Positions 38,384 to 51,967 of a DNA stretch of 64,000 bases are shown piece after piece. The position numbers and the translations under genes are program-made. The notes beneath the pieces were generated by a model. The model did no database searches. It was not told the DNA's origin and was given only the letters and a program-made list of their open reading frames with translations. How positions within the stretch are numbered: position 1 is the first letter of the stretch; each line of letters opens with the position of its first letter. This DNA comes from an uncultured Actinomycetes bacterium (GTDB lineage: Bacteria > Actinomycetota > Thermoleophilia > RBG-16-64-13): the NCBI GenBank assembly GCA_963841735.1, contig CAWJDT010000001.1:352001-416000 (forward strand), read 5' to 3'.

Positions 38384-38680
38384 TCAACCACGATCGCCCC
38401 AGTAGCCAGGGCGCCGCCTGTGATGCGCGACGGCCGAGACATGCACTGCCATACCGTCGAACCAGTACAGGATTGAATAGGGAAATCGGCTGACAACGCG
38501 CTTGCGTGTCTCGCCCAGCAGAATCGGGAATGCGTTTGGATTGTCGGCTACATCAAGGAGTGCAGCCTGCGCAGCATCGAGAAACGCGGTCCCGAGCCCG
38601 AGCTGTTCAAGGTCGTAGAAATCGGCTGCCTCGTTCAGTTCGCGGAAGGCACCAGGCTCGAACAGCACCTCATGGGTCAT
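38384..38680 (-). CDS. RelE/ParE family toxin (cassette)
   Basis: A..EL.EA..FY, RFPYSILY, AVAHHRRRPGYW. Confidence 0.9.
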   Translation of the reverse strand: MTHEVLFEPGAFRELNEAADFYDLEQLGLGTAFLDAAQAALLDVADNPNAFPILLGETRKRVVSRFPYSILYWFDGMAVHVSAVAHHRRRPGYWGDRG

Positions 38681-38901
38681 GCGCGAGCAGCCCGCGCCTT
38701 CGCGAACACCTCGTCCATTGGGATGGGGATTACCCTGCCACCTTGGCCGTCCGCACGTCGGCGCTCAGCTTCCTCGAGCCACAGACGCTCAACCTCGGGC
38801 TCGGGTAGATCATCCAGGCTCTCTAGAAGCTCCCGGGCCAGATCCGCTCGTATCGAAGGATCGAGCCGCAGAGCCTCACGCTTGAGTTCGTCGATAGTCA
38901 T
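38677..38901 (-). CDS. Addiction module antitoxin (TIGR02574-like)
   Basis: RADLARELLESLD, WLEEAERR. Confidence 0.88.
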   Translation of the reverse strand: MTIDELKREALRLDPSIRADLARELLESLDDLPEPEVERLWLEEAERRRADGQGGRVIPIPMDEVFAKARAARA

Positions 38902-38978
38902 GGCATCTCACCTCGCAACGGAACCTACGCACCCCACAATGATACCGCCGACGACTGGCGCTGACACTCCAACGTTAG

Positions 38979-39040
38979 TTCCAACGATTCAGCGCGTCAG
39001 CCGCGCCCGTTGGCCATGGTACTCCATGCAATAGACAACG
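38979..39040 (-). repeat. Truncated attC (3' half only)
   Basis: Near-identical to 38298-38342 (GTCAGCCGCGCCCGTTGGCCATGGTA..CCATGCA); ends in GTTGGAA on the minus strand; no R'' arm. Confidence 0.7.
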
Positions 39041-39100
39041 CCGGCAGAAGAGAACGTCCCCGTCAGAGAAGGTGTTGCGATTCACACTTGAACTCACAAT

Positions 39101-39160
39101 GGCTAACGTCGAGCCGATCAGCTGCCAGCTTCGCTGGTCTGCTGCACCGGCTTGTTAGGC
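39101..39160 (-). repeat. attC site (60 bp, 59-be type)
   Basis: GCCTAAC-AAGCCGGTGCAGCAGACCAGCGAAGCTGGCAGCTGATCGGCTCGAC-GTTAGCC. Confidence 0.88.
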
Positions 39161-39399
39161 ATCGGTTGCCTATCTCCTTCGTCAGGCTCAACGTCGGGCA
39201 CCTTGCCCATCGCACGCTCGAACCTACCACGGTCGCCACGGGCCGCACGCTCCTGAAGATAGTCTACGGTCATTAGCGCCGACATCTTCTCGGCTAGCGC
39301 TGTAGTGATCAACTGGTTGATGGATACGTCCTCAGACTTGGCAAGTTCACGCGCCTTTCTATGGAGTGACTCCGGCAGACGTAGACTGATGGTGCTCAT
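39118..39399 (-). CDS. HicB-like ribbon-helix-helix antitoxin (cassette)
   Basis: MSTISLRLPESLH...SINQLI..ALAEK; C-terminus reads into attC (MPNKPVQQT). Confidence 0.85.
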   Translation of the reverse strand: MSTISLRLPESLHRKARELAKSEDVSINQLITTALAEKMSALMTVDYLQERAARGDRGRFERAMGKVPDVEPDEGDRQPMPNKPVQQTSEAGS

Positions 39400-39820
39400 G
39401 ACCGACCTCCGATCCTTCCCAAGAACTCGCCGGGGGTGACCGCCTCTATCCCGAAGCGCTCGACCTCCACGAAGTCCTTCATGTTGTGCGTGACGATGAT
39501 GCCGCATCCCGCCTCGACGGCCAGTTCGAGCACATGGTCATCGCGCGCATCTCGGAGGACCGGCCGCCAGAGGAAGTGGATCTCTTGTAGATGGGCGACG
39601 CTACACAAGTAGTCGATGACATCGTCGACTTCCTCAGGCTTGAGCCCCGTCGCCTCGGGCATGCGCTTCGCGGCATCCTCATACTCGACCACCAATGGGA
39701 CCGAGAGAGTGATCTCGAACCGCGTCCCTCCGACCAGCATCAGAAGCCGATGCGAGGCGCCCCGGCGTGACCGAAGTGCAGAGATGAAAACGCTAGTGTC
39801 GATGACAACGCGTGGACCCA
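39396..39820 (-). CDS. PIN-domain toxin (cassette)
   Basis: VVIDTSV, SVPL..EYE, WRP.LRD..DDHVLELAV, VTHN.KDF. Confidence 0.88.
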
Positions 39821-39875
39821 TAGCGGTATCGTATAAGATACCAGCCCTTGAGTCAACACGGGCTGACCCCCGTAT

Positions 39876-40040
39876 GCCTAACAATAGTTATCTGGTCTGT
39901 GTAACTCCACCGACACAACATCTGGTTGTCGGCATAACTCCGGCTGCGATTCTCAAGACAGCCCCCCTGGTCGGCATACCGAGCGGTTTCTGAGACCAAG
40001 ACGCCCGCGCGATCTTGGGTTTATGCAGACTGTATGTGCC
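39876..40040 (-). other. attI-like region, locus A
   Basis: Core GTTAGGC (39882-39876) with no attC arm upstream; repeats GTTACACAGAC, TATGCCGAC x2 and TATGCAGAC between the core and the intI relic. Confidence 0.6.
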
Positions 40041-40043
40041 GCC

Positions 40044-40191
40044 CTACAACCTGTCAAACAGGCTGCTGCGGACTCACTGGCCGCCGTGGGCGAGCACGGG
40101 GGGGGTTACGCACGGTGGTGAGCACGTCCTTGTAGCCGAGGAGCTCCTGTGTGGTCCGGGTATTGCAGCCCGCCTCCAGCAGATCAGTAGC
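40044..40191 (-). pseudogene. intI: Integron integrase C-terminal relic (locus A)
   Basis: Manual translation with frameshifts: ATDLLEAGCNTRTTQELLGYKDVLTT...VLAHGGQ*VRS..FDRL* vs IntI [44 protein letters not shown].L*. Confidence 0.8.
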
Positions 40192-40208: not shown

Positions 40209-40226
40209 GGGGCGCCTACCGGCGCC
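40209..40226 (-). terminator. Hairpin terminator, degenerate copy of the 42452 and 51976 hairpins
   Basis: GGCGCC-loop-GGCGCC with a similar flank. Confidence 0.45.
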
Positions 40227-42445: not shown

Positions 42446-42471
42446 CAGAAAGGGGCGCCTTTCGGCGCCCC
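42446..42471 (-). terminator. Rho-independent terminator
   Basis: Minus strand GGGGCGCC-GAAA-GGCGCCCC-TTTCT just after the ORF stop at 42483. Confidence 0.7.
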
Positions 42472-50169: not shown

Positions 50170-50286
50170 CAGCACCTCGGTGTCTGTGTAACAACGGTCT
50201 CGAGCTTCAAGACACCCCCACAATGCGACGTTCCGCGTGCTTTCGCGGCGGTTGCCGCCTCCCGTAGCGTCGTGAATATGCAGACT
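50170..50286 (-). other. attI-like region, locus B (homologous to 39890-40031)
   Basis: Shares GTCTGTGTAAC, TCAAGACA.CCCC and TATGCAGACT in the same order as locus A. Confidence 0.55.
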
Positions 50287-50303
50287 TCCATGAGAAGCCG
50301 GCC

Positions 50304-50650
50304 GGTGTCAAGAGCGATTCTTGGGTTGCTTCTTCCTCCTCTGCTCGGTTTCTATCATCCCTCTTCCGCCGCGAAGAGCCAAGACCACGGCCACGCTTCC
50401 ATTCGCACTTTTTGTCGGGAACCTATGGCGGGACCCGGTGCACGTTGGGGTCCGGCCGGGGGAAGCGCTGCTATCTGTATAGCGGCCTTGGGGACGGCAC
50501 CGGGTTGGTGTCGTTCTGTACGGCCGAGTCTGTGTGCGCAGTCGCTTTCACCCTGGGCGGTTGGTCTTTTTGCTGGTCTCCTGCGATGGGTTCACCCGCC
50601 GGTCTTCCTTGGTTATCGATCCTTCCCGTCGGCATCTCTCATCTTCACCG
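50304..50650 (-). ncRNA. Putative bridge/seekRNA of the IS1111-type element
   Basis: Non-coding region 3' of tnp; stem/internal loop at 50463-50547 whose two unpaired strands match the target flanks; RNA ends unknown. Confidence 0.7.
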
Positions 50651-50653
50651 CTC

Positions 50654-51736
50654 CTAGGTGGTGGGCGCAGTCTCGCCGCGGAGCCGGACGTTGCGCAGTG
50701 GCTCGTAGACCTCACCGGTCCTCCAGAGGTGCAGGAGGAGCACCGAGAGCTTGCGGGCCACCGCCACTACCGCTCGCTTCTTGCCCCGCTTGCCGCCCTG
50801 CGCGGCCAAGGCAAGACCCCAACGCCTGAGATCCGAGTCCGGGCCGAAGGGCCCGAGGATGTAGTGGGCGGCGCTCACGAGGAGCCAGCGCAGGTGCTCG
50901 TCCCCGGCTTTGGTGATGCGCAGCTGAGGCTCCAGGGAACCGGAGCTTGCCTGCCGGGGCCTGAGGCCGAGATACGAGCCCACCGAGCGGCACTTGGGGA
51001 AGCGCTCGGGATCTTCCACGGTAAGGACATAGACTGTGGCCGTAAGCGTGCCCACGCCGGGCACCTGGGAGAGAAGCGCGGTCTCTGGGTAGCGCTCCTT
51101 GGCCATGTCTTCGATCTTCTGATCGAGAGCGCGGATCTCATCGGAGATGTTCTGGATGACGGTGAGGACCGGAGCCAGGGCGGGAGCGAGCTCCTCGGGG
51201 ACACACGGCCCGGCCTTTTGGGCAAAGACGTCGCTCGCGCAGGTGGGCAGGCGGCTGCCCAAGGACTTCGTGCAGCCGCGGGCATGACTGATCAGACGGG
51301 TGCGAGCCCTGACCAGGGCATTGCGACTGCGCACAAGCGCGAGGTCGGACTGGGTCTCGGCTCTCCGATGGGTGAGGGGGGCCAGCAGCTCCGGGTCCAG
51401 ACGACCGACCCGGGCCAGGTACTCGGCGTCCACCCGGTCTGACTTCGAGTCGTTCTGGTAGATGAAGCGGAGCTTGCGGGGATTGGCCACGACAACGTCG
51501 TGTCCAAGTTCGGAAAGCAGACGGCTAACCCAGGGGGAGTGGGTGCCGGCCTCGATCACGATGCGTAGCGGATCCGCCCCGGAGAAGCGGCGACGCAAGG
51601 CTTCCGGCTTGGTCGTCACCCGGCCCTCCTCGGTCACCTCGCCCGCTTCGTCGAGCACACAGATCTGACAACAACGGTCGCTCAGATCGAGACCCACGGT
51701 CACCTTCGCTTGCTCGGTGGTGCTAGCATCGCACAT
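50654..51736 (-). CDS. IS110-family transposase/recombinase
   Basis: DEDD: VGLDLS, VIEAG, KSDRVDA; VPGVG, YLGL.P....SG (catalytic Ser), A.VAVARKL. Confidence 0.95.
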   Translation of the reverse strand: MCDASTTEQAKVTVGLDLSDRCCQICVLDEAGEVTEEGRVTTKPEALRRRFSGADPLRIVIEAGTHSPWVSRLLSELGHDVVVANPRKLRFIYQNDSKSDRVDAEYLARVGRLDPELLAPLTHRRAETQSDLALVRSRNALVRARTRLISHARGCTKSLGSRLPTCASDVFAQKAGPCVPEELAPALAPVLTVIQNISDEIRALDQKIEDMAKERYPETALLSQVPGVGTLTATVYVLTVEDPERFPKCRSVGSYLGLRPRQASSGSLEPQLRITKAGDEHLRWLLVSAAHYILGPFGPDSDLRRWGLALAAQGGKRGKKRAVVAVARKLSVLLLHLWRTGEVYEPLRNVRLRGETAPTT

Positions 51737-51838
51737 GGCTGGCCTCCTTCATTTGGGCCCACGAGCCCGACTCTGATTGGGGACCTCACGGTACTCCGGG
51801 GGAGGTCGGCCTTCTCATCCCATCTGTATATGCCCGCC

Positions 51839-51922
51839 CTACAGGGAGTCAAGCGGGCTGGGCACGCCTTAGCCGCCTCGGTCGTAGATCATGGTCGTGT
51901 AAACGCTTTCGTGTCCCAGAAC
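51839..51922 (-). pseudogene. intI: Integron integrase C-terminal relic (locus B)
   Basis: Manual translation VLGHESVYTTMIY-DRGG*GVPSPLDSL* matches the IntI C-terminus with a short deletion and a nonsense codon. Confidence 0.8.
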
Positions 51923-51967
51923 CTGTGGCGACCTACGTGCTTGACGATGCGCTCCGCGCCCCCGGAG

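Follow-up and report, generated by a model that had tools for sequence, protein, structure and literature searches.

The window, by which we mean the whole stretch of 64,000 nucleotides analysed here, carries two loci at which only the end of an integron integrase gene is left, and which we call locus A and locus B (Table 1). Alignment of the genome's intact IntI with locus A by tblastn placed residues ~271-301 at 40191..40111 (ATDLLEAGCNTRTTQELLGYKDVLTTV), with a weak HSP reaching to 40392, and TIGR02249 matched the same remnant at 40114-40191 (E 6e-4), so that the intI relic of the original prediction is a real one. Past the frame change, the tail reads VLAHGGQ*VRSSLFDRL* by inspection of the translation and ends at the TAG stop. 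Two intact integron integrase genes occur at other places of this genome and score 485.6 and 455.3 bits against TIGR02249 (cut-off 265).

The stop of the locus A remnant is followed by an attI-like spacer which is conserved among the seven platforms of the genome and by two toxin-antitoxin cassettes identified with Pfam. The cassettes lie on the same strand as intI, which is therefore directed toward them. Beyond GCCTAAC (39876-39882), which reads as GTTAGGC on the strand of intI, the seven loci are no longer similar. This point is ~150 bp from the motif described below and would suit a putative attI crossover at the minus-strand GTTAGGC. Within the spacer, GTC(T/G)G(T/C)(G/A)TAAC is present in three direct copies, at 39895-39908, 39928-39941 and 39970-39978, and a hairpin is found at 39996-40019. 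The three boxes are candidate accessory binding sites of the integrase; they may resemble the DR1 and DR2 accessory sites of IntI1 in attI1. A putative attC was recognised at 39101-39160 by reading only; scans with a simple attC regular expression and by folding gave nothing of use and miss this site. Short minus-strand open reading frames follow the spacer at both loci of the window, those of locus B at 49.4-50.05 kb.

Three intI remnants lie on one strand within ~50 kb, namely those of loci A and B and a third at G000:C1:441866 (L017), and each of them keeps its attI-like spacer. Upstream, the three share a GC-rich hairpin and a AAAGGAAAC-like sequence. The hairpin (GGGGCGCCTTTCGGCGCC) was considered as a feature specific to the remnants and rejected, as it also occurs between unrelated genes and is read as being of a generic, terminator-like kind. 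At least five copies of the form GGGGCGCCT(T/A)(T/C)CGGCGCC(CC) are present on contig 1 (window positions 40209, 42452 and 51976; G000:C1:307701 and C1:441936), and the copy at 42452 is non-coding and away from any intI remnant; this hairpin is probably a generic terminator-like repeat. The other recombinase fragments of the assembly that were inspected, on contig 4 (L008 and L009), are not followed by the target motif.

Table 1. Coordinates, in the window, of the features of loci A and B.
Feature	Position	Strand	Remarks
Cassette array past the locus A remnant (two toxin-antitoxin cassettes)	38384..39884	-	same strand as intI
Cassette 1	39884..39118	-	PIN protein and HicB/CopG-like protein
Cassette 2	38901..38384	-	Unstab_antitox protein and ParE
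attI-like spacer, intI stop to first cassette	39876..40021	-	conserved among the genome's 7 platforms
Empty target site, locus A	40022..40036	+	TATGCAGA-CT-GTATG; predicted crossover at the CT core, 40030-40031
Predicted guide 1 footprint	40026..40031	+	RNA CAGACU identical to the + strand bases, would pair with the minus strand; 6/6
Predicted guide 2 footprint	40030..40036	+	UAUACAG would pair with CTGTATA; here CTGTATG, 6/7, rU:dG at 40036
intI remnant, locus A	40044..40191	-	C-terminal ~50 codons; internal TGA, frame change; TAG stop 40046..40044
IS1111-family IS, locus B	50287..51825	-	1,537 bp plus one CT = 1,539 bp; duplicate flank CT at 50285-50286
Putative seekRNA/target-binding-loop region	50459..50550	-	outer and inner stem with an internal loop of 11 x 11 nt between them
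Guide 2 DNA	50475-50481	-	loop strand
Guide 1 DNA	50527-50532	-	loop strand
DEDD transposase	50654..51736	-	360 aa; PF01548 (2e-17), PF02371 (1.5e-18), NF033542 (217.7 bits, cut-off 140, match from residue 13); motif GLRPRQASSG
intI remnant, locus B	51839..51948	-	IntI residues ~261-321; internal stop

At locus B, an insertion sequence separates the remnant from its spacer. The arrangement is TATGCAGA-CT, the IS (50287-51823), CT-GTATATG and then the intI remnant. In the direction of the transposase, the IS starts with AG-ATGGG-ATGAGAAGGCCGACC and ends with CCGGCCGGCTTCTCAT-GGA. Its subterminal inverted repeats, ATGAGAAGGCCGACC and ATGAGAAG-CCGGCC, agree at 13 of 15 positions with one indel, the first eight being perfect, and its terminal extensions are 7 nt on the left (AGATGGG, the shared dinucleotide counted) and 3 nt on the right (GGA). 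These lengths are obtained only because the empty site at locus A shows where the target ends. The non-coding sequence is 367 nt long at the 3' end versus 87 nt at the 5' end. Elements of the IS1111 family are described as having a DEDD transposase with the motif GL-P----S(t)G, subterminal inverted repeats of ~11-13 bp, extensions of 7 (or 6) and 3 nt and a longer non-coding region on the 3' side (Siddiquee et al., PMC11187229). The motif is present in the translation of the transposase, and the IS of locus B shows every one of these features that could be tested. Counted from the first ATG, its transposase has 360 aa and would be slightly longer than the range of 330-350 aa cited for this family, and the match to NF033542 begins at residue 13.

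The best match of this transposase in a plasmid collection has 37% identity and is unnamed, so that the IS is undescribed and new. The search for further copies in 41 relatives and in 301 genomes of the class yielded none nearer than 87% in amino-acid identity. At the right end of the IS in the direction of the transposase (50310-50320, minus strand), a TTGACA which the relatives retain is separated by 17 nt from GAAGAT over the predicted junction of a circle; by reading only, we regard the pair as a candidate for the type of junction promoter that IS1111 elements are reported to have.

The plus strand of locus A reads TATGCAGACTGTATG at 40022-40036. No other match exists in the window, even when up to three mismatches are allowed. 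Comparison with the occupied site of locus B showed identity at 10 of 10 positions of the left half and core and at four of the next five bases, or 14 of 15 in total, and locus A reads CT-GTATGTG from the core to the right. The flanks of the two sites can be aligned on both sides, over the tail of intI on one side and over the attI-like region on the other. The claim that the site lies 8 bp past the stop of the relic was correct as to the position, which is equivalent to that of locus B, but the gap of 8 nt is that of locus B; it is 7 nt at locus A, because locus A is without one C. The use of the empty site as a pre-insertion reference proved sound: it sets the ends of the IS at 50287 and 51823, with a 2-bp CT that can be assigned to either end.

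A match to the 15-mer with up to three mismatches carries no significance by itself, given that 0.62 such matches are expected by chance and that 44 of 100 shuffled sequences contained at least one, and the case for locus A is therefore founded on homology and context. The shuffles could be taken to mean that locus A holds a short motif by accident. With 14 of 15 identical positions, a homologous stop at the same offset, alignable flanks on both sides and recurrence of the motif in relatives but not in the reversed control (see below), we consider the likelihood of such an accident to be practically nil. The comparison of the two loci shows that the 15-mer of locus A is homologous to the natural target used by the new IS1111-family element and is unoccupied.

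The minimum-free-energy fold of the 3' non-coding RNA placed two strands with similarity to the target in one internal loop, between an outer stem (GCGA-CUGC / GCAG-CGC) and an inner stem (CGGCC / GGCCG). The 5' strand of the loop is ACACAGACU, which contains CAGACU (guide 1), and the 3' strand is CUAUACAGAUA, which contains UAUACAG (guide 2). Independent derivation of the guides reproduced the counts of the original prediction for locus A, which are 6/6 for CAGACU and 6/7 for UAUACAG (against CATACAG), and the two footprints overlap on CT. CAGACU is located upstream of UAUACAG, so that the complement of the top strand, in the direction of the transposase, comes first and the two matches overlap. 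In the seekRNAs of IS1111 elements, a match to the top strand is reported to precede an overlapping match to the bottom strand, in the reverse of the order found in IS110 elements (PMC11187229). Folding of the whole 3' non-coding region was no better than that of shuffled sequences (z -1.1), and a search against Rfam at E up to 1 gave no family for this RNA besides a spurious miRNA match. A convincing donor-binding loop was not identified; by reading, only AUGGAAG, which corresponds to the right end and the core, is conserved in the non-coding regions of the relatives, and no partner strand was found for it.

Related IS with 59-87% amino-acid identity were gathered from the same family and class, and 14 RNAs were aligned. 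The stems were paired in 87.4% of cases across these 14 IS, with 31 compensatory cells, a result reached by none of 500 shuffles, and slid controls gave 32-54%. The related IS keep the ends and the scaffold, while both strands of the loop differ between them and track the flanks of each copy: UCGGACCU goes with AG-GTCCGA in G019a, GCUCCAACC with GG-TTGGAGC in G066b, CCUAACAG with CCTAAC-AG in G048 and CAUCCCG with a CG core in G061. The longest match over the entire non-coding region proved too noisy as a measure, and the matches were therefore anchored on the loop. Guide 1 then matched its own flank over 6, 6, 4, 9, 8, 6, 6, 8, 5, 7, 10 and 10 nt in 12 copies, while 144 of 157 non-cognate pairs matched over 4 nt or less. 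Guide 2 matched its own flank over 7, 4, 8, 7, 7, 7, 7, 6 and 3 nt in nine copies, while 109 of 121 non-cognate pairs matched over 4 nt or less. The high values among the non-cognate pairs arise because sister IS share a guide, and the weak cognate values (G122, G019c, G015 and, for guide 1, G048) mean that insertions at imperfect sites happen; the copies in G019, G015 and G122 are located at sites with one to three guide mismatches.

Several of these relatives differ from the rest in one respect or another. An IS with 80% amino-acid identity (L152, on G122:C10) has guides, ACGCAGACU and CUAUGCAG, which predict nearly the same palindrome as those of locus B. It is located between GGAGCAGGC-AG and AG-TCTGTGTCTCC, where the guides match over only 6 and 4 nt and where the site resembles the internal box of attI, and its insertion is an apparent off-target event. 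The core dinucleotide varies within the clade. In G061 (L158), the flank and guide 2 alike carry CG; G023 (L157) has AG at its left side, AA at its right side and UU in guide 1; in G066b (L167), GG is paired with CC of guide 1. Two relatives with 85-86% amino-acid identity (L151 on G064:C77 and L163 on G059:C91) have normal left ends at GCTAGC-AG and 3' parts replaced by unrelated sequence, and appear to be disrupted copies.

The assembly of the genome, which comprises 2.8 Mb in 8 contigs and is 89.7% complete, contains five copies of the IS with 100% identity. All five are in one orientation relative to intI and directly 3' of an intI gene or remnant; two of these intI are intact and the rest are remnants. 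The copies are flanked by (T)TAT(G/A)CAGA-CT on one side and by CT-GTATATG(C) on the other. The flanks are alike for ~10 nt on each side and divergent beyond, so that the five copies represent five separate insertions, and the same divergence contradicts an origin by duplication of segments that were already occupied. A pattern search of the assembly returned two credible empty sites, locus A and G000:C1:441866, which reads TATACAGA-CT-GTATCTG and lies beside a vestigial intI tail 26 kb outside the window. Locus A had been described as the second target site. It is indeed an empty homologue, but the description was incomplete, since the assembly has seven sites in total, five occupied and two empty.

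The base at the last position of the guide 2 match separates the two groups. It is an adenine at all five occupied sites, a guanine at locus A and a cytosine at G000:C1:441866. No empty site that matches the filled ones perfectly was found by the pattern search of the 89.7%-complete assembly. If occupancy were independent of this base, a split of five versus two would arise by combinatorics in 1 of 21 cases, a figure calculated on only seven sites that are paralogous and not independent. The pattern of filled sites with A and empty sites with G or C argues that locus A is a disfavoured target rather than one which has merely not yet been hit. In its strongest form, this would mean that the G at 40036 blocks recombination and that locus A is a decayed or immune target, closed to the IS. 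Besides the distribution of the bases and the shortage of perfect empty sites, a closed site would agree with the relatives, as position 7 of guide 2 is paired in most of the informative ones (matches of 7-8 nt in the IS itself, G048, G194a, G047, G023 and G015), and with IS621, for which single mismatches are reported to be poorly tolerated (PMC11208160). However, the pattern rests on seven sites, the mismatch at locus A is an rU:dG wobble and an rG:dT pair is reported to be tolerated naturally by IS621 (PMC11208160), related IS occupy mismatched sites (G019c, G015 and G122), and the seventh base of guide 1 is mismatched at four of the five filled sites. Tolerance of distal mismatches elsewhere means that the mismatch at position 7 need not explain the emptiness of locus A. 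We give a complete closure of the site appreciably less than even odds, and most of the remainder goes to a locus A which is open but slower.

A restored target, once occupied and then freed by precise excision of the IS, was also considered. IS110 and IS1111 elements are reported to form circles with abutted ends, and the seekRNA is reported to be necessary for excision (PMC11187229), which makes such a loss conceivable. A restored site and one that was never used would, however, be identical in sequence, the same paper notes that re-joining of the target once a circle has formed is yet to be established (PMC11187229), and an earlier insertion next to the G at 40036 is opposed by the split of five versus two sites. 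Precise excision is thus an improbable origin for the empty site. A search of public runs returned three metagenome runs, which contain only 4-9% of the sampled words; their contigs neither cover 39972-40059 nor show joints and are uninformative on the use of the site. No RNA or DNA run that covers the IS was returned either. In 15 genomes of the same genus, only the downstream dehydrogenase gene is common to the orthologous locus (87% in G002 and 80% in G004), and the remnant and the site do not adjoin it.

The target motif is also found where the IS is absent. When up to three mismatches in 14 positions were allowed, it was present at 13 of 18 intI 3' ends in other genomes of the family, versus 0 of 18 for the reversed control, and the conservation of the motif 3' of intI, to which the original prediction had tied its claim, thus holds in the relatives. 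The motif is in the same sense and 11-17 nt past the end of the protein match, except in G010, whose match ends earlier (52 nt). It is exact, at 14 of 14 positions, in G013, G020 and G049, all without an inserted IS. Among the distant IntI loci, 36 of 80 were examined for palindromes; by reading, at least nine of these 36, all from other phyla, have a TTATRC-N5-GYATAA palindrome right after the intI stop (L021, L026, L027, L028, L030, L031, L032, L037 and L050), whereas a fuzzy match to the 14-mer flagged only three. The palindromes often lie inside longer stems, the flanks of which differ and yet stay complementary. In an Omnitrophota MAG, the palindrome after the intI stop is TTTATGCAGACTGTATAAG. 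The palindrome can thus be regarded as a conserved element of the integrons with an IntI of this clade. A dif/Xer site was rejected for the motif, by reading only, as its half-sites point outward (TTATGC...GYATAA) and not inward.

The presence of the motif after intI in the relatives, together with the palindromes of the distant loci, indicates that it belongs to the integron, in which it may act as an integrase box, as a part of attI or as a 3' hairpin of the transcript. The left half of the target, TTATGCAGAC (40021-40030, plus strand), corresponds in inverted orientation, with 90% complementarity, to the repeated box GTCGGCATAA (39928-39937). The resemblance of locus A to the occupied site could be a by-product of ordinary paralogy, the motif being kept for the purposes of the integron itself (an integrase-binding box, an extended attI or a hairpin at the 3' end of the intI transcript) and its status as a target of the IS being incidental. 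We see an even chance of this, given the conservation of the motif in relatives without the IS, the palindromes with compensatory flanks in other phyla and the relation between the left half of the target and the threefold box of the attI-like region. Such a function is nevertheless compatible with locus A being an unoccupied paralogue of the natural target, and it accounts for the existence of that target.

The following course of insertion is proposed from sequence, and we hold it, together with the reading of locus A as an unoccupied target, to be likely, with a probability of about 0.8. The target would be the conserved near-palindrome located 7-17 nt after the stop codon of the integrase in integrons of the "reverse" type, whose intI is directed toward attI and the cassettes and which are seen here in a Coriobacteriia-like genome. 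The IS would be guided by an RNA from its own 3' non-coding region, provided that this RNA is made and bound as its fold and covariation suggest. CAGACU, in the 5' strand of the loop, would pair with the bases that lie opposite 40026-40031, and UAUACAG, in the 3' strand, with 40030-40036, and the CT core on which the footprints overlap would be the place of strand exchange. At locus A, the predicted product of insertion would read ...CAGACT, the IS, CT-GTATG..., with the transposase on the strand of intI. The mismatch at the far end of guide 2 would lower the use of the site, and locus A is probably a usable but second-rate target, left empty while every perfect site of the genome is filled.

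The IS resembles the IS1111 elements ISEc11, ISKpn4, ISPst6 and ISPa11 (PMC11187229) in its DEDD transposase, its inverted repeats in subterminal position, the 7 and 3 nt of its terminal extensions and its long 3' non-coding region, in its two short overlapping RNA segments directed against the top and then the bottom strand, in its single orientation and in the natural retargeting among its relatives. It differs from them in its target, a palindrome located past the intI stop and before attI rather than an attC, a REP sequence or a transposon end, in its transposase of 360 aa and in its identity of at most 37% to members of the plasmid collection. Like the IS1111-attC group (Tetu & Holmes 2008; Post & Hall 2009, as cited in PMC11187229), it dwells in integrons and has a conserved, partly palindromic integron target; unlike that group, all five of its copies are located past the intI stop and before the attI-like region, at ~150 bp from the putative attI crossover, and none is in an attC. 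As the target is on the integron platform itself, intI, attI and the cassettes are all left uninterrupted. Its 18-nt end, GGCCTTCTCATCCCATCT, is common to many metagenomic IS (L173-L252), the flanks of which often begin with G(G/A)TT(A/T)(A/C)G and resemble the core of attC or attI, and this suggests a large integron-associated clade of IS1111 elements. Among the matches listed, many of the relatives with this end adjoin GTTRRRY-like flanks, so that the IS of locus B may be a retargeted cousin of the IS1111-attC group. No GTAT-flanked insertion was present among the matches listed in the metagenome scan with the 18-nt end (at least 81 junctions at 80 loci).

As in the bridge RNA of IS621 (PMC11208160), the two sides of an internal loop would each pair with a different strand of the target, around a core of CT. 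The tolerance of IS621 to mismatches is reported as low but not zero and includes natural wobble (PMC11208160). Unlike in IS621, the sequence for the putative RNA lies 3' of the transposase gene, the order of the guides is reversed and long subterminal repeats are present. The platforms themselves are like the reverse ("atypical") integrons of Treponema (PMC3607928) in that intI points toward the cassettes and a putative attI core GTTAGG(C/T) is located 150-215 bp past the 3' end of intI. They differ in belonging to another phylum, in being several per genome, most with only ~15-60 codons of intI, and in having toxin-antitoxin cassettes. A literature search by title and abstract, with open-access text only, found no IS1111 element aimed at the spacer between intI and attI. 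The system is thus of a known kind with a new target, and the known picture of these elements is unchanged.

The seven paralogous targets, with a clean split between perfect sites that are occupied and sites one base off that are empty, amount to a small natural experiment on guide specificity. Since IS110 and IS1111 recombinases are under development as genome-writing tools, natural data on the tolerance of guide mismatches are useful. We tentatively propose, as a reading that we hold to be rather unlikely in this full form, that this lineage of IS is a hitch-hiker specialised on integron platforms which homes to a palindrome between intI and attI that is probably bound by the integrase, that its perfect sites are saturated and that the empty ones show discrimination of base 7 of guide 2 in vivo. 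If this were true, insertion at the spot between intI and attI would disrupt nothing and would allow the IS to travel with the integron, and the palindrome would be a functional component, so far overlooked, of attI or of the regulation of intI in the reverse integrons of several phyla. The insertions described here represent a second route, besides the targeting of attC, by which IS1111 elements colonise integrons, and they draw attention to a palindrome that is conserved past intI in reverse integrons.
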